Assembly (NCBI GenBank): GCA_965656195.1
Contig: CBFHJL010000001.1
Span: 11,715-75,714, forward strand
DNA: 64,000 nt
DNA from: Brumimicrobium sp.
GTDB lineage: Bacteria > Bacteroidota > Bacteroidia > Flavobacteriales_D > Crocinitomicaceae
Direction: 5' to 3'
The notes under the pieces are model-generated. The model had not been told where the DNA came from, did not search any database, and saw only the letters and a list, made by a program, of their open reading frames with translations. Positions 37,856-47,623 of the stretch are shown here, piece by piece. A program made the translations under genes and the position numbers. Numbering within the stretch: position 1 is the first letter of the stretch; each line of letters starts with the position of its first letter.

Positions 37856-40799
37856 ATTCCTCATTATATCTTGGATCACCGATATAATTGAGTTTTTTAC
37901 TGTGAATAACTTCAAGTGAATAATATCCAAATTCTTCAGTAACTCTTCCATTGATCTGGTATATTCCTCTTCCCTGAAAAGGGAATTTTCTGATGGTTGG
38001 AGGGAAGTGAACCGATTCGAAAAAGTTCCCCCAATAATCTATAAATGTGCCAAAGCACATGTGTTCATTTCTATTGGTCTTTGTATTCTTGATAGAAACG
38101 AGATAGCCATACATTTTAATTTTCCGTCCAGCATATTCATTAAACAAAGTAGCACGAATAGTAGGTTTAACCGGTTCTTGAAGCAATAGAAAGGGGTTGC
38201 ATAAGGGAAAGTCCAATAGCTCCATTTCTTCAAAAGCTTGCTCTAATTTATCTACAGGGAGATTCGGAAATGTGAAGTCCTTATTCTTTTGCTCAAATAA
38301 TTCAGGCTGCTTATCAGTCCTAGTATTGGTCTTGTAAAACAAGTGTACGCGCCATTTTAATTGTTGTTTTTCGCTGGAAATTTTTCGGAATGCTCCGATG
38401 CGTATAAGTAGCAGTACATTCTCGATAGAGAGGTAGGTCCCTTTCAATAACTCTTCAAGTGAAGTAAAAGCTCCATTTACTTCACGATACTGTAATAGCT
38501 TGTAGATATCTTTGCTACCAATACCATTAATTAGGTTGAATCCAAGATAGATGGTATTTCCTTCTACGATCGTCTGCCAATGACTCTTTTGAATGCAGGG
38601 AGGTTCTATTTCAGCACCTTTTCTTTTGGCTTCATGAATGTAGAATTCTGTTCGGTAATACCCTCCAAAATTATTGATGGTGGCAACCATATATTCGATG
38701 GGGAAATAGGCTTTTAAGTATAAACTTTGGAAGCTTTCTACTGCATAAGAAGCGGAGTGACCTTTTGAAAAAGCATAGCCTGCAAAACTCTCAATTTGTT
38801 TCCATATGGTCTCGGTTACCTGCTCTCCATATCCTATTTGTGAGCAGTTCTTAAAGAATTTTTGCTTGATCACTTGAAATTCTTTTCGAGATCGATATTT
38901 ACCAGACATTCCTCTTCTTAAAACATCCGCTTCGTCCAGAGTAAGGCCGGCAAAAAGGTGAGCTACTTTGATCACATCTTCTTGGTAAACCATAACACCA
39001 TAAGTTTCGGGCATGATTTTCAAGAGTTCAGGGTGCGCAGTTTTTCTGCGTTCTTTGCTTTTGTGTCTGAGTATATATTCTCTCATCATTCCTGAATCAG
39101 AAACCCCAGGTCTAATAATAGAGCTGGCAGCAACGAGTTCAAGATATGTGCTCGTTTTTAGTTTTTTCATTAACTGTCGCATAGCGGGAGATTCAACGTA
39201 GAAACAACCCATTGCCTCACCGTTCTGAAGCAATGCGCAAACATTTGGATCTTCTTTGAAATGTGTCACATCATGTATGTCATGAATCTTCTTTTCTGGT
39301 TGATTGTATTTTATGATTTCAATGCTTTCGTGAATCTTGCTTAGTCCACGTTGACTTAAAATATCAAACTTGTACAATCCAACATCCTCAGCTTCTAGCA
39401 TAGAAAACTGTGTCGTGGGAAATCCTTTTGGTGGTAGAAATGTCGCGCTGAACCATGTTGTCGGTTTTTCACTAATAATTATTCCTCCTGAATGAACACT
39501 GAGGTGAGAGGGGAGTCCTTCTATGTAACTACTGTATTTGAGCACGAGTTGACTCATTTCATCAAGTTGGGTTATGTTATATTTTCCACGACTTAATACA
39601 TCAATATCTGATTTTGGAAGCCCGAAGACCTTACCTAGCTCACGAACAGTGGCTCTGAATTTAAATGTATTATATGTGCATAGTAATGCCGCGTTAGGAA
39701 ATCGTTTGAAAATATATTGTATAACCTCGTCACGCTCTTTCCATGAGAAATCAATGTCAAAGTCTGGAGGGTTTTTACGATATACATTGATGAAGCGCTC
39801 AAAGTAAAGATCAAGCTCCAATGGGTCAACATCTGTTATGCCGAGTAAATAGGCGACAATACTGTTAGCTCCGCTGCCTCGTCCTACATGAAAATATCCT
39901 TTTGAGGTAGCGTAGTTGATGATGTCCCAAGTCACCAGAAAGTAAGCGAGATAATCCTTTTTCTCGATCACATCAATTTCACGATGGATACGATCTTTAA
40001 TGACTTGGTTAACGGTAGGGTATCTTTTTGGTAATCCTTGCTGGCATAATGATTCAATTAGCTGCTTGTCCTGTGATTTTGATCCAGTGTATGTTTGAAT
40101 ATTTTGAGCTTCAACTTCATCTCCAAAACTGAAATTGACATGGCAAGACTCCATCAGATTCTCTGTACGTGTTATAATTTCAGGGAAATCCCTATAAAAA
40201 TCATAAAGTTCTTTTTTTGAAATAAAATGATCTCGCTCTTGAGCTTGCTCTTTGGTAGGTAGCTTAGATAGCAAACAATTCTTATCTATTGCACGCAAGA
40301 GCCTGTGAGCATTAAATTCTCTTTTGTTCTCAAATGTCATCGTTTGCAGAATGACCATTTTGTTCATGTTACTTTTTTGATCATTATTCAATTTATTCAC
40401 TTGAGACGGACGAATGCCAAGGTATTCATCATTTCTGTAGACTCTAGGAGCGTTCTTTAGCGGGTATACAGCTATACAGTTAGGTAAATACTCTGTACGA
40501 TCTGGGAATGGTAGGTTTTCATGGAGATGATGGGATATATAGGTGTTGATTTCGTGAAAACCCCGATTGTTTTTAGCAATTAGTATGTATTTCTGATCTA
40601 TTCCGTTTCTTATATCTGCGCCTGCTATGATCTTTGTATCAATTTCTTGTGATAACTTAATAGAACTTAGTATAGCAGTTGTACTGTTAATGTCGGTAAT
40701 AGCTACTTTTTCATATCTATTGTATTTTGCCCATTCTAGAATCCAGCGAATTGACTTCACTCCATATTTTATGCTGTATTTTGAATGTATATTAATCAT
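37854..40799 (-). CDS. dnaE2: DnaE2-type error-prone DNA polymerase III alpha subunit
   Basis: PHP N-terminus (H.KYS), GRGSGANS, PPDFDIDF, KFDILSQRGL, YAFSKGHSASY, OB fold; 981 aa, shorter than replicative DnaE. Confidence 0.88.
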   Translation of the reverse strand: MINIHSKYSIKYGVKSIRWILEWAKYNRYEKVAITDINSTTAILSSIKLSQEIDTKIIAGADIRNGIDQKYILIAKNNRGFHEINTYISHHLHENLPFPDRTEYLPNCIAVYPLKNAPRVYRNDEYLGIRPSQVNKLNNDQKSNMNKMVILQTMTFENKREFNAHRLLRAIDKNCLLSKLPTKEQAQERDHFISKKELYDFYRDFPEIITRTENLMESCHVNFSFGDEVEAQNIQTYTGSKSQDKQLIESLCQQGLPKRYPTVNQVIKDRIHREIDVIEKKDYLAYFLVTWDIINYATSKGYFHVGRGSGANSIVAYLLGITDVDPLELDLYFERFINVYRKNPPDFDIDFSWKERDEVIQYIFKRFPNAALLCTYNTFKFRATVRELGKVFGLPKSDIDVLSRGKYNITQLDEMSQLVLKYSSYIEGLPSHLSVHSGGIIISEKPTTWFSATFLPPKGFPTTQFSMLEAEDVGLYKFDILSQRGLSKIHESIEIIKYNQPEKKIHDIHDVTHFKEDPNVCALLQNGEAMGCFYVESPAMRQLMKKLKTSTYLELVAASSIIRPGVSDSGMMREYILRHKSKERRKTAHPELLKIMPETYGVMVYQEDVIKVAHLFAGLTLDEADVLRRGMSGKYRSRKEFQVIKQKFFKNCSQIGYGEQVTETIWKQIESFAGYAFSKGHSASYAVESFQSLYLKAYFPIEYMVATINNFGGYYRTEFYIHEAKRKGAEIEPPCIQKSHWQTIVEGNTIYLGFNLINGIGSKDIYKLLQYREVNGAFTSLEELLKGTYLSIENVLLLIRIGAFRKISSEKQQLKWRVHLFYKTNTRTDKQPELFEQKNKDFTFPNLPVDKLEQAFEEMELLDFPLCNPFLLLQEPVKPTIRATLFNEYAGRKIKMYGYLVSIKNTKTNRNEHMCFGTFIDYWGNFFESVHFPPTIRKFPFQGRGIYQINGRVTEEFGYYSLEVIHSKKLNYIGDPRYNEE

Positions 40800-40810
40800 T
40801 TCTCTAGATT

Positions 40811-40818
40811 CAAAATTA
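40811..40818 (-). promoter_or_regulatory. -7 promoter box TAATTTTG for dnaE2
   Basis: Consensus match 11 nt upstream of the ATG; overlapped by the first operator box. Confidence 0.6.
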
Positions 40819-40851
40819 ATTATTAATCATTATAATGATTAATAATTAATC
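40814..40851. promoter_or_regulatory. Tandem operator: AATTA-N5-TAATC plus GATTA-N5-TAATC, forming a perfect 36-bp palindrome (40815-40850)
   Basis: ATTAATTATTAATCATTA|TAATGATTAATAATTAAT read directly. Confidence 0.75.
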
Positions 40852-40972
40852 AAAATAAAACAAGTAATACCTCAGGTGACTGTTTTACAGTTTCTTGAAA
40901 AAATCAAAAGAATAAAACGTATAATGGTTATATTTAAAGTGTTGTAGCTATTCAAATAATATATATTCTACT

Positions 40973-42313
40973 ATGATCATTGATATTCCGCATAATAAGA
41001 AAGCAAGAGTTGTTATCATCGGAGGAGGGTTCGGAGGTATTCAGCTTGCTAAGACGTTGAAGAACAAAGATGTTCAGGTTGTGATCATTGATAAGAATAA
41101 TTACCATACTTTTCAGCCGTTGTTGTATCAAGTAGCTACTTCAGTTTTAGAATCTGAATCGATTGCTTACCCCATCCGAAAGATCTTTAAAAAAGCCAAG
41201 AATGTCTTTTTCCGATTAGGAGAGGTGACGAAGATTGACCCAAAAGAAAATAAAGTTTACCTGGATAATGATGAGTTATCGTATGATCATTTGGTGATTG
41301 CTACTGGTGCACAAACGAATTTCTTTGGTAATGACGGTTTGATTGTTAACTCGATGCCGATGAAGAGTATCATAGAGGCACTTGATCTTCGCTCGATGAT
41401 TTTAAATAATTTTGAGAAGGCCTTGCGGAATTCTAATGAGCGAAAGCGAAAGGGGATGATGAATTTTGTAATCGCAGGTGCTGGCCCAACGGGTGTTGAA
41501 TTAGCCGGAGCAATGGGGGAGTTGAAGTTGCATGTACTTCCGCATGATTACCCTGAGTTGGATTTCAGTCAGATGAATGTCTACCTTGTGCAGAGTGGTA
41601 GTAGGGTATTACCGATGTTAAGTGAAAAGAGTAGTGAAAAAGCAAAGCGCTATTTAGAAAAGTTAGGCGTTAACGTAGTTTTAAATACGAGAGTATTGGA
41701 CGTGTCCGGAGATTATGTTCAGACCTCTACGGAAGAAGATATTATTGCACGAACGTTGATTTGGACGGCCGGAGTTGAAGGAAACCCTGTTGGAGGTCTT
41801 GGAAAAGAAGCGATTGTTCGTGGAAATCGAGTAGCAGTGGATGAGTTTAATCGTGTTAAAGGGTATGACAATATTTATGCGCTTGGTGATGTAGCGTCAA
41901 TGTCAACAGAAGAACATCCCAATGGTCATCCCATGATTGCTCCACCAGCTATGCAGCAAGGAGTAAATTTGGGTAAGAACATTCTCCGCTCTCAGAAAGG
42001 TCAGCCAATGAAACCATTTCAATATAAAGACAAAGGCGCCATGGCTACTGTAGGTAAGAATAAGGCCCTTGTGGAAATGGGTAAATTCCGTAGCGGTGGA
42101 ACGTTTGCCTGGTTTGTGTGGATGGGAGTTCACCTCATGGCGCTTGTTGGGTTCAGAAATAGAATCATTACACTCTTTAACTGGACGAAGAATTATTTTA
42201 GTTCCGATAGAGGGATGCGTTTAATGATCTCAAAGTATGATCCAGGAGATGAACGTCGTAAGAAGAAGCAACAAATGAAAAAGCGCCACCTTGCTCAAAT
42301 GGAGAAGGACTAA
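40973..42313 (+). CDS. ndh: Type II NADH dehydrogenase (NAD(P)/FAD oxidoreductase)
   Basis: IIGGGFGG, FQPLLYQVA, GAGPTGVELAG, YKDKGAMATVG. Confidence 0.9.
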   Translation: MIIDIPHNKKARVVIIGGGFGGIQLAKTLKNKDVQVVIIDKNNYHTFQPLLYQVATSVLESESIAYPIRKIFKKAKNVFFRLGEVTKIDPKENKVYLDNDELSYDHLVIATGAQTNFFGNDGLIVNSMPMKSIIEALDLRSMILNNFEKALRNSNERKRKGMMNFVIAGAGPTGVELAGAMGELKLHVLPHDYPELDFSQMNVYLVQSGSRVLPMLSEKSSEKAKRYLEKLGVNVVLNTRVLDVSGDYVQTSTEEDIIARTLIWTAGVEGNPVGGLGKEAIVRGNRVAVDEFNRVKGYDNIYALGDVASMSTEEHPNGHPMIAPPAMQQGVNLGKNILRSQKGQPMKPFQYKDKGAMATVGKNKALVEMGKFRSGGTFAWFVWMGVHLMALVGFRNRIITLFNWTKNYFSSDRGMRLMISKYDPGDERRKKKQQMKKRHLAQMEKD

Positions 42314-43197
42314 GGTATAGCCCTTACTGCATCTGATAGATGTTGAAATTTAAACTTGAAGTTTTCTTTTTCAAGATTTTCAGGAAGTACCCATCGACTT
42401 TTCAAGACAAGCTCTGTTTCTGTTCTAATCACAAAAGCACCTACTGCTAAAAGACATCTAGGGATAGGAATATACCAGTTTCTACCGTGAAACTCCCTTA
42501 CCCATTGCATGAGTTTCTCGTTGTCACTTGGGTTCGGAGAAGTGCAGTTATAGATTGCTTTTGGATTTTCACTATTCTCTATATGTCTTATTATTCTATA
42601 TAGATCTTCTATATGTATCCAACTGAATTTTTGGGATCCTTTACCTTGTGGACCTCCAAAACCAAATTTTGCTAACATCTTTAAAGGAGTAAAAGCACTT
42701 CCGTCTCCAAGTACAATTGCAGTTCTAATAGCCACTTGTTGTACGTTTTTGTGTTTTTTAGCGAAGAAAGCTGACTCCCATGTTCTTGCGACGTGAACGG
42801 AAAAACCGGTTCCTATCTCACCATTTTGCTCTGTCATTGGTCGATCTTCAGCATGTCGATAAATTGTTGCTGTGCTAGAGTTGATCCACTTTTTTGGTGG
42901 ATGCTCACATTCTTTAATGATTTCATGTAGCCTGAGTGTTGTCCAAGTTCTTGATGTTAGCACTTTCCATTTGTTGCGATAGGTATATCTACAATCAACT
43001 GATTTCCCACTTAAATTCACAAGTACCTCAGCGTTGTTGAGTGAATCTATAAGTCCTTCTGTGTCCTTCCAGCTCACTTTTCCCGTCCCGCTTTTTCTAG
43101 AGATTGTGATAACTTCATAACCTAACTCTATGTATCTTTCTTTAAGATAACTTCCGATAAAACCAGTGCCTCCCGCTATGACTATTTTATTTTTCAT
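42310..43197 (-). CDS. TIGR01777/YfcH-family NAD-dependent epimerase-like protein
   Basis: IAGGTGFIG, NLSGKSV, SWIHIED, SRWVLP..L...F.F. Confidence 0.88.
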   Translation of the reverse strand: MKNKIVIAGGTGFIGSYLKERYIELGYEVITISRKSGTGKVSWKDTEGLIDSLNNAEVLVNLSGKSVDCRYTYRNKWKVLTSRTWTTLRLHEIIKECEHPPKKWINSSTATIYRHAEDRPMTEQNGEIGTGFSVHVARTWESAFFAKKHKNVQQVAIRTAIVLGDGSAFTPLKMLAKFGFGGPQGKGSQKFSWIHIEDLYRIIRHIENSENPKAIYNCTSPNPSDNEKLMQWVREFHGRNWYIPIPRCLLAVGAFVIRTETELVLKSRWVLPENLEKENFKFKFQHLSDAVRAIP

Positions 43198-43561
43198 GAT
43201 CTACTTTTTTAAATTCATTAATTGTGATGATTAGATACCCTATCGCCATAATAATTCCAGCAAAGAACATGATCGCAAGGTAAAGGAATAGCAATTCTCT
43301 AAGTAAGATTGTAAGCAAACCTAATATAGCTAATGAAACTAAGCTTATCGTATATCCGGTTGGGTTTGAATTGTTCTTCAACCTTCTATTTAAGTGAAGC
43401 AAATAGCTTAAAAGTTGTACTCCTCCTAATCCAAAGAAGAAGAGAAGGAATGAAGCTCCACAATACATTGGCAGAAATAGGAATGAAATCGAAAGTGCTA
43501 GAATTGTAGCCTGTATAAAGATTTCGACCTTGAGCAGTGTTCTTAAATTTTTAGTTTTCAT
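43187..43561 (-). CDS. Small 4-TM membrane protein (paralog of 63093-63467)
   Basis: Hydrophobic; KVEIFIQAT, GLGGVQLLSYLLH, YLIITINEF. Confidence 0.7.
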   Translation of the reverse strand: MKTKNLRTLLKVEIFIQATILALSISFLFLPMYCGASFLLFFFGLGGVQLLSYLLHLNRRLKNNSNPTGYTISLVSLAILGLLTILLRELLFLYLAIMFFAGIIMAIGYLIITINEFKKVDHEK

Positions 43562-43577
43562 ATTTATATTTTTAAAG

Positions 43578-43595
43578 TTTCAGAAATTATTGAAA
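43578..43595. promoter_or_regulatory. Operator candidate TTTCA-N8-TGAAA
   Basis: TTTCAGAAATTATTGAAA; second copy at 44148-44165. Confidence 0.6.
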
Positions 43596-43612
43596 GTTTG
43601 AATTAAATTTTT

Positions 43613-44116
43613 TTATTTCACTAATTTGAATAGGGTAGCATAGATCCAATTTTCATCAGATCGACTGAATTTGTCTAGTAATCCGTCAACTTTACCTGAA
43701 AATGAATGAATATCTTTCGTTATTTTTTGAAAAGCTAGTGCATCCTTACTGTCATCGAACTTTTCTGTAGATAATTGCTGCATGATCTGAGTTACTGGTT
43801 CTATTTCACGTTTTCTTCTTTCTCTTGCAATTGATCGAGCAACTTTGTTGATGTCTTTTTCGGCTTTGAAAAACTCTTTTCTTTCACCGATGTGATGTTC
43901 TTTATATACCAATCCCCAGTCTTGTAAAGCTCTAAGATTCATATTCGCATTCCCTCTGGAGATTTGAAGTCTTTCCATAGCCTCTTCAGTTGTAAGTGCA
44001 TCTGGCGAAATCAATAATAGCGCGTGTATTTGTGCCATGGTCTTGTTTATTCCCCAACTCGAACCAAGTTGTGCCCAGTGTTGTATAAATGCGCTTTGTG
44101 CTTCTTTTAATTCCAT
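43613..44116 (-). CDS. GbsR/MarR-family transcriptional regulator
   Basis: FIQHWAQLGSSWGINKTMAQIHALL, SRGNANMNLRAL.DWGLV; start set at ATG 44116 after -7 box TATCTTTG (44123-44130). Confidence 0.9.
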   Translation of the reverse strand: MELKEAQSAFIQHWAQLGSSWGINKTMAQIHALLLISPDALTTEEAMERLQISRGNANMNLRALQDWGLVYKEHHIGERKEFFKAEKDINKVARSIARERRKREIEPVTQIMQQLSTEKFDDSKDALAFQKITKDIHSFSGKVDGLLDKFSRSDENWIYATLFKLVK

Positions 44117-44145
44117 CTTCAACAAAGATATATACTTATTTCTAA

Positions 44146-44167
44146 ACTTTCAAAAATAATTGAAAGT
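44146..44167. promoter_or_regulatory. Operator candidate ACTTTCAA-N6-TTGAAAGT
   Basis: Palindrome over the upstream promoter region of the regulator gene. Confidence 0.65.
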
Positions 44168-44221
44168 ATTTGCGTTTTATTTTTCATTTATCTGATTATT
44201 AAATATTTAAAATACTTGATG

Positions 44222-45439
44222 TTACACCCTTCGATTCGCCAATAATACAGGTGGTTCTCCATTGAAAGGATTCGTTCTTCCTATGGTTCTGGCTGTTAAA
44301 CCTGCTGCACGCATTACGCTTCGATCGCCAAACCGATTACGGATATTATCCATAGCCTGATATAAATCGCTCTGTCGTGTATCATCTGTAAATAAGTTGA
44401 TCTGATGACTACCGCTCACAAGGTGACTCAGTCGTATTCCGATCAAGCGAATTCGAACCCTTCGGTTATAAATCTTATCAAAAAGCTCTAATACCAATGG
44501 AATGATCTCGTGATCGGCAGCTGTATAAGGAATCTTTTTTTGTAGTGTTTTCGTCTGAAAATCTGAATAACGTACTTTGACAGTTACACAGGCACAAACC
44601 TTATTTGCTCTTCGCAATTGAAAGGCTAAGTTTTCTCCCATTGCGGATAGAATTCCTTTTACTTTTAAAATGTCAATTGTATCACGATCAAAAGTGCGTT
44701 CTGTGGAAATCGATTTGCGTTCACTGTGTTGAATAACAGGTGAGGGGTCTATACCATGCGCTTTCTTCCAGATCATACGTCCATTCTTACCAAATACTTG
44801 TTCTAGTAGTTCAACAGGCATCTCTTGAAGGGTGTAGATCTTTTTTACACCTAGTCCGCAGAAGGTTTGGTACGTTTTTAATCCTACAGAAGGGATTTTT
44901 CGTATGGATAGTGGTGCAAGAAATGGTCGTTCAGTTCCATAATTTACATTGATTGCATTATTAGGTTTGGCTTCTCCCGTAGCGATCTTGGAAACCGTTT
45001 TGTTTTCTGATAACCCGAATGAAATGGGTAGTCCGGATTCTCTAATGATCTTTTCTCTCAATTCATCAGCGTATTGTTTACAGCCGAAAAAACGATCCAT
45101 CCCTGTGAAATCGAGATAGAATTCATCGATTGAACTCTTCTCATATACAGGAGCTGATTCGCGGATAATCTCTGTGACAATTCTTGAGTATTTAGTGTAG
45201 GTAGATGAATTACCTTTAATTACAATAGCATCAGGACATCGTTGCAGTGCCATTTTCATAGGCATAGCAGAATGAACACCGAATTTACGAGCTTCATAAC
45301 TACATGATGCTACAACACCGCGATCGCTGGTTCCTCCAATCAGTATAGGTTTGTTGTTTAATCGACTGTCGAGTAGACGTTCACATGAGACAAAAAAAGT
45401 GTCCAAATCCATATGGACAATAGCGCGTTCCTTTTGCAT
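44222..45439 (-). CDS. dinB: DNA polymerase IV (Y family)
   Basis: HMDLDTFFVS, GVVASCSYEAR, SIDEFYLD; start set at ATG 45439. Confidence 0.95.
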   Translation of the reverse strand: MQKERAIVHMDLDTFFVSCERLLDSRLNNKPILIGGTSDRGVVASCSYEARKFGVHSAMPMKMALQRCPDAIVIKGNSSTYTKYSRIVTEIIRESAPVYEKSSIDEFYLDFTGMDRFFGCKQYADELREKIIRESGLPISFGLSENKTVSKIATGEAKPNNAINVNYGTERPFLAPLSIRKIPSVGLKTYQTFCGLGVKKIYTLQEMPVELLEQVFGKNGRMIWKKAHGIDPSPVIQHSERKSISTERTFDRDTIDILKVKGILSAMGENLAFQLRRANKVCACVTVKVRYSDFQTKTLQKKIPYTAADHEIIPLVLELFDKIYNRRVRIRLIGIRLSHLVSGSHQINLFTDDTRQSDLYQAMDNIRNRFGDRSVMRAAGLTARTIGRTNPFNGEPPVLLANRRV

Positions 45440-45508
45440 AACTAAGCATTTACAGGTTAAAAAAATGACAATTGGAACTGCATATCGAATTGCTCCTTTC
45501 GGATAGAA

Positions 45509-45516
45509 CAAAGATA
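45509..45516 (-). promoter_or_regulatory. -7 promoter box TATCTTTG for dinB
   Basis: Consensus match; operator boxes begin 16 bp further upstream. Confidence 0.6.
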
Positions 45517-45532
45517 GGTTAAGTTTTAAAAA

Positions 45533-45570
45533 GATTAAAATATAATCAATGAAAAGATTATTAAATAATC
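45533..45570. promoter_or_regulatory. Tandem operator: two perfect GATTA-N5-TAATC boxes
   Basis: GATTAAAATATAATC (45533-45547), 8-bp spacer, GATTATTAAATAATC (45556-45570). Confidence 0.75.
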
Positions 45571-45771
45571 ATTTTAATGTAATCAATTAGCTGGTGCATT
45601 AAACATTAAAAACAGGTTCATGGTGATAGTATAATTTACTGAATGCAAATAATGTAAAAGGAACATTTTTTCTTGACTAAATAGCAATAGAACTGTTATT
45701 TTGAACTAAATAGTGGAGTGATTGAATCAAAAAGTTGGTTAATAATAGCATCGACGTAAATTTGACGAGAA

Positions 45772-46173
45772 ATGGGAATAGTATTGCTTCCAGTCTACTT
45801 GCTAGCCTTTCTAGTATGGGTTTTTGCTTTGATTTTTTTTCTTTTAAGAACTTCTGATGGGCATATGGCGAAATGGTGGAGTATACCTATTGGGATATTG
45901 ATTTCTCTGTTTCTATATGTTTTATTACTTTATTCTTGGTCACTTCAAGATGAAGTATGGGGGTTACAATCATATTTTAGCATACCAATGATTCATATTG
46001 TCTTTCCAGGTCTTGTTGGATTAGCTGGGATATATATACCTAAGCACAGAGTGTTTTGGAATGTAATAGGTTTCTCCTTTTGCTTTGCAGCTATAATCCC
46101 GCCTTTTGTATATTTATTCGCACCTTATTTATTGGATGCAGATACCTTCGTTAATATTAGGCTAACCTATTAA
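45772..46173 (+). CDS. Hypothetical 4-TM membrane protein
   Basis: Hydrophobic ORF with -7 box TAAATTTG at 45757-45764. Confidence 0.7.
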   Translation: MGIVLLPVYLLAFLVWVFALIFFLLRTSDGHMAKWWSIPIGILISLFLYVLLLYSWSLQDEVWGLQSYFSIPMIHIVFPGLVGLAGIYIPKHRVFWNVIGFSFCFAAIIPPFVYLFAPYLLDADTFVNIRLTY

Positions 46174-46174
46174 C

Positions 46175-46204
46175 AAAAAAAACTGCCCACCTTTCGATGA
46201 GCAG
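46175..46204 (-). terminator. Intrinsic terminator after lpdA
   Basis: - strand CTGCTCATC-GAAA-GGTGGGCAG then a T run. Confidence 0.82.
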
Positions 46205-46231
46205 CTGTATTTTATTCTAAATTCCAAACTT

Positions 46232-47623
46232 CTACAAATGTATAACCTCGTCATACGCTGCAGCCGCCGCTTCCATAACAGCTTCTGACATTGTAGGGTG
46301 AGGGTGAACAGTCTTGATCAATTCATGACCTGTTGTTTCAAGTTTACGAACAGCTACAATCTCAGCGATCATTTCTGTAACGTTAGCCCCAATCATATGA
46401 CCTCCTAATAACTCACCGTATTTCGCATCAAAGATTAATTTAACAAACCCTTCTTTTGCTCCAGCAGCGCTAGCTTTACCTGATGCAGAGAATGGGAATT
46501 TACCTATCTTGAGATCATAACCAGCTTCTTTAGCCGCTTTTTCTGTCATTCCTACAGAAGCTACTTCAGGAGAGCAATACGTACATCCTGGGATATTGTT
46601 ATAATCAATTGGATCTGGGTTATGACCAGCGATTTTCTCTACACATGTAATTCCTTCAGCACTTGCTACATGAGCCAATGCTTGACCAGGAACACAATCA
46701 CCAATCGCATAGTATCCAGGGATATTCGTTTGGTAGTAATCATTAACCATGATCTTACCTTTATCTGTAGCGATACCAACATCCTCAAGTCCGATACCTT
46801 CTATGTTTGCTTCAATTCCAACAGCAGAAAGAACAGTATCACATTCGATAATTTCTTCTCCTTTCTTTGTCTTAACCGTAACCTTACATCCTTTCCCTCC
46901 TGTATCAACTTTCTCAACAGAAGAATCAGTCATGATCTTGATTCCTTTTTTCTTGAAGTTTTTCGCTAATTCCTTTGATACATCTGTGTCTTCAACGGGG
47001 ACGATGCTCGGAAGGTACTCAACGATTGTTACTTCTGTACCAATTGAGTTATAGAAGTAAGCAAACTCAACACCAATTGCACCAGAACCAACTACAACCA
47101 TTTTCTTCGGTTGCTTTTTTAATGTCATTGCTTCACGGTAACCAATTACTTTCTCACCATCCTGGGGAAGATTAGGGAGCTGTCTAGAACGCGCTCCTGT
47201 TGCAATGATCACTCCTTTATCTGCTTGATGTGTTTCTTTCTTGCCATTTGCATCCGTTACTTCTACTTTTTTTCCAGCAAGTATTTTACCTGTTCCAGAA
47301 AGAACATCGATCTTATTCTTTTTCATTAAGAATTGAACGCCTTTACTCATTCCTTCCGCTACATTACGACTTCTTTTCACCATTCCGTCAAAATTTACTT
47401 TACTGTCTTTAACAGTAATGCCGTAATCCTCCGCGTGAGATAAGTATTCAAATACATTTGCACTTTTCAATAGCGCTTTTGTTGGAATACATCCCCAGTT
47501 CAAACAAACACCACCTAATGATTCCTTTTCAACCACAGCAGTTTTTAATCCTAACTGAGAAGCACGGATCGCAGTAACATATCCTCCTGGTCCACTTCCT
47601 ACAACTATAATATCGTAACTCAT
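46232..47623 (-). CDS. lpdA: Dihydrolipoyl dehydrogenase
   Basis: GSGPGGY, GGVCLNWGCIPTK, HPHPTMSE. Confidence 0.97.
   Translation of the reverse strand: MSYDIIVVGSGPGGYVTAIRASQLGLKTAVVEKESLGGVCLNWGCIPTKALLKSANVFEYLSHAEDYGITVKDSKVNFDGMVKRSRNVAEGMSKGVQFLMKKNKIDVLSGTGKILAGKKVEVTDANGKKETHQADKGVIIATGARSRQLPNLPQDGEKVIGYREAMTLKKQPKKMVVVGSGAIGVEFAYFYNSIGTEVTIVEYLPSIVPVEDTDVSKELAKNFKKKGIKIMTDSSVEKVDTGGKGCKVTVKTKKGEEIIECDTVLSAVGIEANIEGIGLEDVGIATDKGKIMVNDYYQTNIPGYYAIGDCVPGQALAHVASAEGITCVEKIAGHNPDPIDYNNIPGCTYCSPEVASVGMTEKAAKEAGYDLKIGKFPFSASGKASAAGAKEGFVKLIFDAKYGELLGGHMIGANVTEMIAEIVAVRKLETTGHELIKTVHPHPTMSEAVMEAAAAAYDEVIHL

Follow-up and report, generated by a model that had tools for sequence, protein, structure and literature searches.

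Which regulator governs the genes for mutagenic DNA polymerases in marine Flavobacteriales related to Brumimicrobium? The question arises from a 64,000-nucleotide stretch of DNA from Brumimicrobium sp. (contig CBFHJL010000001.1; hereafter the window), in which the polymerase genes dinB and dnaE2 are each preceded by a pair of palindromic boxes of the form GATTA-N5-TAATC. We consider it probable, at roughly 85%, that each pair is an operator of the non-canonical LexA of Bacteroidota, a repressor with an N-terminal HTH_3 domain and a C-terminal S24 domain whose gene would lie outside the window. This assignment builds on the boxes themselves, their pairing, their overlap with promoters, their conservation and their genome-wide association with genes for such a repressor, DinB and DnaE2.

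Exactly three perfect copies of GATTA-N5-TAATC are present in the window (37% GC) compared with 0.24 expected from shuffling, and none of 100 shuffles reached three. A fourth copy, the proximal box at dnaE2, has a single mismatch. All four sites are palindromic dyads with a 5-bp spacer, and they form two pairs, one at dnaE2 and one at dinB, both with a period of 23 bp (an 8-bp gap). When every period between 15 and 35 bp was scanned, the 64 kb gave no further 23-bp-period pair with three or fewer total mismatches. One-mismatch boxes taken singly show no enrichment in the window (9 versus 4.9 expected), and thus the signal consists of the perfect boxes and their pairing; the single boxes at 283, 26523, 37017, 45156 and 49905 are at chance level and were placed outside the system.

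These numbers bear on one alternative, in which no dedicated protein binds the boxes and they are AT-rich palindromes that arose by chance or are generic features of promoters. The AT-richness of the window, the overlap of the boxes with -7 and -33 elements and the lack of enrichment of single one-mismatch boxes are all compatible with that view. However, it is contradicted by the shuffling result, by the fixed 8-bp spacing, by the conservation of the boxes in the closest relative and by the occurrence of at least 120 pairs in one phylum beside the same three gene families (see below). A chance origin is ruled out by these statistics and this conservation, and the explanation as a whole is extremely improbable.

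The product of dinB scores 279.7 bits against the NCBIfam model NF002677, for which the equivalog cut-off is 256, and that of dnaE2 is shorter than a replicative DnaE, which is why it is called DnaE2-like (Table 1). On the gene strand, the dnaE2 promoter reads TTTG-ATTAATTATTAATC-ATTATAAT-GATTAATAATTAAT-TTTG, then 11 nt, then the ATG. The first TTTG precedes the distal box, and the final T (rather than C) of the proximal box completes a perfect Bacteroidota -7 element, TAATTTTG, which is separated from the ATG by 11 bp (40800-40810). At dinB, the putative -7 element begins 16 bp past the proximal box, and this box would therefore cover the -33 region. Both of these SOS-type translesion polymerase genes thus have boxes in the promoter region, over the -7 element in the case of dnaE2 and over the -33 region in that of dinB. 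A preliminary description of this DNA had proposed the same box positions (three perfect, one with a single mismatch), the shared 23-bp period, the two gene identities and the placement over the promoters, and had noticed no other perfect copy in the intergenic regions that it covered. All of this holds: the scan now covers the full 64 kb, where no other such pair exists, the gene calls are backed by Pfam and NCBIfam, and the placement agrees with the promoter consensus. A search of positions 40000-46500 against Rfam gave no match.

Table 1. Genes, putative promoter elements and operator boxes in the window, and operators found with three recognition helices of the repressor family
Feature	Position	Strand	Sequence or evidence
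dnaE2-like gene, error-prone DNA polymerase III alpha homologue, 981 aa	37854-40799	-	Pfam DNA_pol3_alpha, finger, HHH_6, PHP; NCBIfam DnaE-type matches
dnaE2, putative -7 element	40811-40818	-	TAATTTTG; consensus match; overlaps proximal box
dnaE2 operator, proximal box	40814-40828	.	AATTAATTATTAATC; gene strand GATTAATAATTAATT; one mismatch, last base C to T
dnaE2 operator, distal box	40837-40851	.	GATTAATAATTAATC; perfect palindromic half-sites
dinB gene, DNA polymerase IV / Bacteroidetes 'PolY2'-type Y-family, 405 aa from ATG at 45439	44222-45439	-	Pfam IMS, IMS_C, IMS_HHH_1
dinB, putative -7 element	45509-45516	-	TATCTTTG; consensus only; starts 16 bp downstream of proximal box
dinB operator, proximal box	45533-45547	.	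GATTAAAATATAATC; perfect
dinB operator, distal box	45556-45570	.	GATTATTAAATAATC; perfect
Operators with helix KRSTLSGYENG	93 loci		GATTA pairs
Operator with helix KRTTLNNYENG	L241:5892-5929		GATTA box + GACTA box GACTACAATATAGTC, 8-bp gap
Operator with helix KRSTINSYENG	L247:2100-2125		single GTTAA-N5-TTAAC

Among sequencing runs, only those of marine plankton metagenomes (DNA) contained the window's sequence, no search having been aimed at RNA runs. Its closest relative, Flavobacteriales bacterium UBA2104 (locus L077), was fetched via its dinB pair and shares 95% (DinB) and 78% (DnaE2) amino-acid identity with the window, with 74-79% identity at the DNA level. Both boxes of the L077 dinB pair are perfect, and the -7 element is kept as TACCTTTG. 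The dnaE2 promoter of L077 carries a perfect box (2976) and GATTAATATTTAATT (2999) with the 23-bp period, the same C-to-T mismatch and the window's -7 element. Upstream of the boxes, the DNA of both promoters has diverged. Window and L077 therefore each exhibit the layout of a lambda-CI-type tandem, with two adjoining dimer sites at fixed helical phasing. The position of the operator is also the same as in the window in L077, L005 and L206.

In other relatives, a single operator pair precedes one operon, which is dinB-dnaE2 in L005, L024 and L095 and dnaE2-dinB in L066. In the window and in L077, by comparison, the two polymerase genes are split by an NDH-2 gene and each has a pair of its own (compared at window 40973-44125 and L077:1470-1475). 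That each gene has its own pair after the operon split suggests selection to keep both under the same control.

Between its polymerase genes the window also contains a segment of about 1.9 kb (42313-44221) that is absent in L077 and carries genes for a yfcH-like oxidoreductase, a membrane protein and a MarR-like protein. The last of these (43613-44125, minus strand) could in principle autoregulate a dinB-marR operon via the boxes, given that its gene lies on the same strand as dinB and 96 bp downstream, that the protein has weak MarR_2/HTH_20 matches (E = 7.6e-7) and that MarR proteins act as dimers on palindromes. However, both operator pairs persist in L077 without the segment, no MarR-like homologue flanks the motif at any of the 120 genome loci listed (see below), and dnaE2 has the same boxes with no MarR-like gene nearby. 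Its absence from L077 and from the other loci rules out the MarR-like gene as the regulator, so that this explanation, too, has a negligible probability. Two open reading frames (ORFs) with no family match (43187-43561 and 45772-46173) were likewise considered as regulators and rejected, both encoding hydrophobic membrane proteins.

A separate feature of the dinB 5′ leader is a 37-nt block, ATCCGAAAGGAGCAATTCGATATGCAGTTCCAATTGT (45468-45504, minus strand), that is 100% identical in L077 while the nearby leader differs. Within the block lie a TCC-GAAA-GGA hairpin and a short ORF upstream of dinB (MQFQL...). The more distant L095, L024, L206 and L005 do not conserve the block, which has no Rfam match.

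The exact pair (20 specified bases) was then sought in one genome per species across 185,579 bacterial and archaeal species (596 Gb). The perfect pair occurs at least 120 times, whereas base composition predicts 0.5 to about 20 matches for the whole collection, and 118 of the 120 records among the matches listed bear a Bacteroidota label. Most of the listed matches are environmental 'Bacteroidales' metagenome-assembled genomes (Prolixibacteraceae, Marinilabiliaceae, Rikenellaceae, Lentimicrobium and Salinivirgaceae), and several are Flavobacteriales, including the isolate Putridiphycobacter roseus. Genes flanking each listed pair were called and clustered, with 8-kb neighbourhoods covered. A DinB homologue flanks the pair at 94 of the 120 listed loci, the gene for a protein of about 270 amino acids starts roughly 10-12 bp from the pair at 93, and the two are arranged divergently around it at 79. 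DnaE2 is directly beside the pair at nine loci, and dnaE2 lies downstream of dinB on the same strand in about 70. The usual layout is a repressor gene, the operator pair and a dinB-dnaE2 operon running in the opposite direction, and the regulon in the DNA examined consists mostly of the repressor, dinB and dnaE2.

The flanking protein of about 270 amino acids carries the Pfam domains HTH_3 and Peptidase_S24. In these regulators of the relatives, an Ala-Gly site (KAKAGY; A114-G115) and a Ser-Lys dyad (S152, within GDSMLP, and K191) are invariant. The C-terminal domain aligns end to end with the Data S5 family alignment of PMC8565304, and it is 48% identical to that of Pseudopedobacter/P. actiniarum WP_025606010.1, a CTAA-type protein validated by electrophoretic mobility shift assay (EMSA), and 33% identical to that of the GGA-type protein of S. 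agarivorans, WP_075324850.1. By its domains and alignment, the regulator belongs to the family that Sánchez-Osuna et al. (2021) called 'non-canonical LexA'. A profile search recovered 6,873 clusters (90% identity) at E <= 1e-10, some of which NCBI names 'LexA family transcriptional regulator'. The preliminary description had suspected a phage-CI-like S24 repressor as the owner of the operator, and the HTH_3 + S24 gene found about 10-12 bp away at 93 of the 120 listed loci supports that proposal.

Also consistent with such a repressor is the architecture of the operator region. The consensus across the 93 repressor-dinB intergenic regions is ...T-GATTATATTGTAATC-A.AA.aTT-GATTAAtTTcTAATC-AAA.aTA..., and in 89 of the 93 loci the repressor strand carries a TAnnTTTG whose last base is the operator's first G. 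The transcription start of the repressor gene would therefore fall inside its own operator, which indicates repressor autoregulation in the relatives. An exact TAnnTTTG for dinB is located inside the inter-box gap in 17 of 94 loci. For the stand-alone dnaE2 genes of Bacteroidales the pair lies 4-12 bp from the ATG, and in the Flavobacteriales group it lies just upstream of the -7 element. In every one of these arrangements, a bound protein would occlude the promoter. In relatives, the motif precedes the repressor's own gene at the 93 listed loci and at three of three loci that were picked by homology.

The latter are regulator loci from JGI metagenomes that were chosen by protein homology alone. 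All three carry a pair with an 8-bp gap directly upstream; of the six boxes, five are perfect and the remaining one has GACTA. Furthermore, a metagenome scan for pairs that admitted any gap of 0-30 bp has its mode at 8 bp among the matches listed, where only 8-bp gaps (and a few of 9 bp) adjoin DinB, the regulator, DnaE2 or SRAP. Other gap lengths represent simple repeats or an unrelated palindrome resembling repetitive extragenic palindromic (REP) elements. Outside the selected pairs, 3 perfect boxes are found in 878 kb of loci versus 1.9 expected, one of them in the L077 dnaE2 pair and one in a further pair of locus L015. Because isolated perfect boxes are at chance level, the boxes exist essentially only as pairs. 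The tandem arrangement that had been claimed for the window is thus a general one, with a fixed gap of 8 bp (rarely 9 bp).

The unrelated palindrome is a repeat of about 58 bp, gcaacctacaGATTATTCACTAATCTGCTAGCAGATTAGTGAATAATCtgtaggttgc, on many metagenome contigs (for example, L133, L144, L157, L167, L178, L183 and L188). It matches the pattern coincidentally and has the look of a REP element or a miniature inverted-repeat transposable element (MITE).

Several points weigh against assigning the pairs to an S24 repressor in this lineage. As the preliminary description had remarked, the window holds no gene for one: tblastn with the 93 regulators and 150 family representatives gave no S24 repressor in the window, and a Pfam scan of its mid-sized ORFs gave no HTH_3 and no S24 domain. 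The same tblastn queries detected no repressor in the available stretches of L005, L024, L066, L077, L095 and L206, and at none of these Flavobacteriales loci does a repressor gene lie beside the operator. The link to the repressor in this marine Flavobacteriales lineage is consequently extrapolated from other Bacteroidota. The genome-wide scan that had been called for was expected to hit both an S24 repressor gene and recA-type repair genes. The former appeared at 93 of the 120 listed loci, but recA-type targets were not seen, and neither recA nor uvrA lies beside a pair in the 8-kb neighbourhoods of the matches listed. The promoter elements were assigned by their match to the TAnnTTTG/TTTG consensus. 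Most loci were chosen by the motif, which makes the perfection of their half-sites circular, and only the L077 dnaE2 pair and the three metagenome loci are independent of motif selection. Finally, repressor binding, cooperativity, self-cleavage and induction by DNA damage are features that we infer from sequence.

The missing gene leaves room for two other explanations. A different transcription factor might bind the boxes in this lineage, the likeness to the Bacteroidales operator then reflecting shared ancestry or convergence. The lack of an S24 regulator in the window and in the available DNA of the Flavobacteriales relatives would fit this, as would the marine metagenome family members P0249 and P0137, which have no boxes upstream and no S24 Pfam match. 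However, the half-sites, the 5-bp spacer, the 8-bp gap and the targets match those of about 100 genomes in which an S24 repressor gene is beside the operator. At locus L241, whose DinB and DnaE2 are intermediate in similarity between the two groups, the repressor gene is indeed next to dinB-dnaE2 and a GATTA/GACTA pair, and the related Fluviicola and Owenweeksia possess 'L2'-type homologues without a recognised motif (PMC8565304). We therefore regard a different factor as unlikely.

Alternatively, the operators could be relics, with the repressor lost from the lineage and the boxes persisting as promoter sequence. The failure of tblastn to find the lineage's regulator in the window and in the available stretches of its relatives is in line with such a loss, and both regulon shrinkage and regulator loss have been reported for some clades (PMC8565304). 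On the other hand, all four boxes (three of them perfect) are kept in the window and in L077 despite diverged intergenic DNA, and each gene kept or acquired a full pair after the operon split, which argues for continuing selection. Relic operators seem less likely still than a different factor. Both explanations are disfavoured because the layout and targets match those of repressor-linked loci and because the four boxes have been kept, and an operator of the non-canonical LexA is the reading we prefer.

If this reading is correct, one repressor dimer would occupy each 15-bp GATTA-N5-TAATC dyad, and the centres of the two dimers would be 23 bp apart, with binding that is probably cooperative, as for lambda CI at OR1-OR2. 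The dimers would cover the -7 element and start site of dnaE2 and the -33 region of dinB and so block RNA polymerase. When DNA is damaged, the repressor would be induced by RecA filaments to cleave itself at its conserved Ala-Gly bond and would leave the operator, and both halves of a PolY2(DinB)-DnaE2 mutagenesis cassette would be expressed. In most relatives the cassette forms a single dinB-dnaE2 operon, which diverges from the repressor gene and shares one pair with it; in this lineage the cassette has been split, each gene keeping a pair of its own.

The repressor family offers a view of how such an operator may have diverged. When the wider family is clustered at 50%, many recognition-helix sequences are found, and three of them can be set beside an operator (Table 1). 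Read across these loci, the operator half-site changes along with the recognition helix. Among the contexts of family representatives, a repressor is tied to GATTA/GACTA boxes only for P0122 (L241); P0271 has a single GTTAA-N5-TTAAC, P0277 has GATGA...TAATC beside thrS, and P0125, P0128, P0249 and P0137 have no boxes at their loci. The dinB promoter of Draconibacterium orientale in Data S4 of PMC8565304 contains GACTAAATTATAGTC, followed after 8 bp by another dyad that is imperfect. A scan of viral contigs for the repressor of this lineage yielded only distant relatives (33-45% identity).

Some neighbours of the family and of the operator stand apart from the usual layout. A freshwater repressor subgroup (helix NRSTYSGYENE, a cluster of 119 members) resides upstream of thrS-infC-rpmI-rplT and not beside dinB, and its loci (L243-L246:4929-4960) have only a degenerate box, GATGATATTTTAATC, upstream. 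Occasional neighbours of the pair encode SRAP (L013 and L146), a ParE/GyrB-like protein (L095), ComM (L106) and a YhcG nuclease (L100). At L015:5016-5053, an extra operator-like pair with one mismatch and a 9-bp gap lies upstream of a gene for an 89-aa zinc-ribbon protein (MEKFNRFCQSCGMPM...). All these genes are candidates for additional regulon members. Beside the operator, between the repressor gene and dinB, there are recurrent insertions of small genes that encode 23S rRNA-intervening-sequence (four-helix-bundle) proteins (L003, L044, L064, L085, L130, L141, L194 and L264).

We lean, with some reserve, towards a broader interpretation in which GATTA-N5-TAATC-N8-GATTA-N5-TAATC constitutes a third major operator class of the Bacteroidota non-canonical LexA family. 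It would belong to a distinct subfamily with the helix KRSTLSGYENG, comprising more than 6,800 clusters, whose members would bind exclusively as paired dimers, in the manner of lambda CI, and govern a minimal SOS regulon of the repressor and the PolY2-DnaE2 mutasome. Such a class would serve environmental Bacteroidales, Marinilabiliales-type groups and some marine Flavobacteriales, lineages whose regulator had no recognised site among the motifs described so far. What is described here is a new motif within a known repressor family, and no new kind of system.

The operator would give a site and a fixed-spacing architecture to a very large subgroup of the repressors that had lacked a recognised site (6,873 clusters), and with it a route to predicting damage-inducible mutagenesis in abundant Bacteroidota of marine waters, sediments and digesters. 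It also shows clearly that the half-site of a CI-like repressor can change, with graded variants from GATTA to GACTA and then GTTAA, and that an operator can be retained, or arise anew, on each half of a mutagenesis operon that has been split.

A description of the Bacteroidota SOS system dates only from 2021; it gave two main motifs, left many regulators lacking a recognised site and reported no LexA homologue in the phylum (PMC8565304). In the tree of that study, Marinilabiliales-type genomes carry two 'L2' homologues, and Fluviicola and Owenweeksia carry one 'L2' without a recognised motif. The validated motifs are GGA-N5-TCC, CTAA-N5-TTAG and TTAC-N5-GTAA (Sánchez-Osuna et al. 2021, PMC8565304). 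The half-site found here differs from all three; in the window, CTAA-N5-TTAG and TGGA-N5-TCCA are at chance level, and neither occurs near dinB or dnaE2. GATTA-N5-TAATC is absent from the motif and site sets and the tables of PMC8565304, in which Table S10 lists, among dozens of unrelated palindromes, one incidental ATTA-N5-TAAT dyad from Flavobacteriaceae bacterium 10Alg115 that was not treated as a motif. No later description was found in the literature searched, with most subscription journals outside the search. The suggestion that this operator specificity is undescribed is thereby supported.

The nearest known system is that of the CTAA-N5-TTAG 'L2' repressors (Pseudopedobacter/P. actiniarum). 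Common to both are an inverted repeat whose 5-bp spacer is AT-rich, a repressor from one and the same HTH_3 + S24 family, and sites located at genes for translesion polymerases as well as at the gene of the repressor itself, with several sites per promoter reported for the CTAA system. In contrast, the half-site here is GATTA (extended, T-GATTA), the dyad spans 15 bp rather than 13 bp, the boxes are paired at a constant gap of 8 bp, and the regulon is small. The recognition helix also differs, being KRSTLSGYENG here and KRS(L/V)(L/I)GAYEEGRA in CTAA-signature representatives, whose motif assignment is itself inferred. The GGA-N5-TCC system of Salegentibacter agarivorans (Flavobacteriaceae) likewise has a 5-bp spacer, occurs in the same class (Flavobacteriia) and controls dinB, often in an operon with dnaE2, although its operator sequence is unrelated and the C-terminal domains of the regulators are only 33% identical. 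A precedent for a half-site change in which the dyad-N5-dyad form is kept exists in the TTAC-N5-GTAA paralogue of Elizabethkingia anophelis (EMSA; Fig. 8 and Table S10 of PMC8565304), but that half-site is a different one, and TTAC occurs as a lone site within one clade.

The target genes match the putative Bacteroidetes PolY2-DnaE2 mutasome (Timinskas & Venclovas 2019, PMC6511836). Unlike in that cassette, the polymerase genes of the window and of L077 stand apart, with unrelated genes between them and a pair for each. The regulators and sites described here also differ from canonical LexA and its clade-typical boxes (such as CTGT-N8-ACAG and GAAC-N4-GTTC), as the regulators have HTH_3 in place of the winged-helix domain LexA_DNA_bind and the motif is another. 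The spacing finds its closest counterpart in lambda CI, whose adjoining dimer sites are 23-24 bp apart centre to centre. At OR1-OR2 and OR2-OR3, as here, a protein with a CI-like HTH and an S24 C-terminal domain is matched to sites that overlap divergent promoters, including the repressor's own. The lambda sites, however, are 17 bp long and non-identical, and cooperativity is demonstrated in lambda, whereas it is a proposal here. Furthermore, lambda CI operates a prophage switch, whereas the operator described here would control chromosomal repair polymerases.

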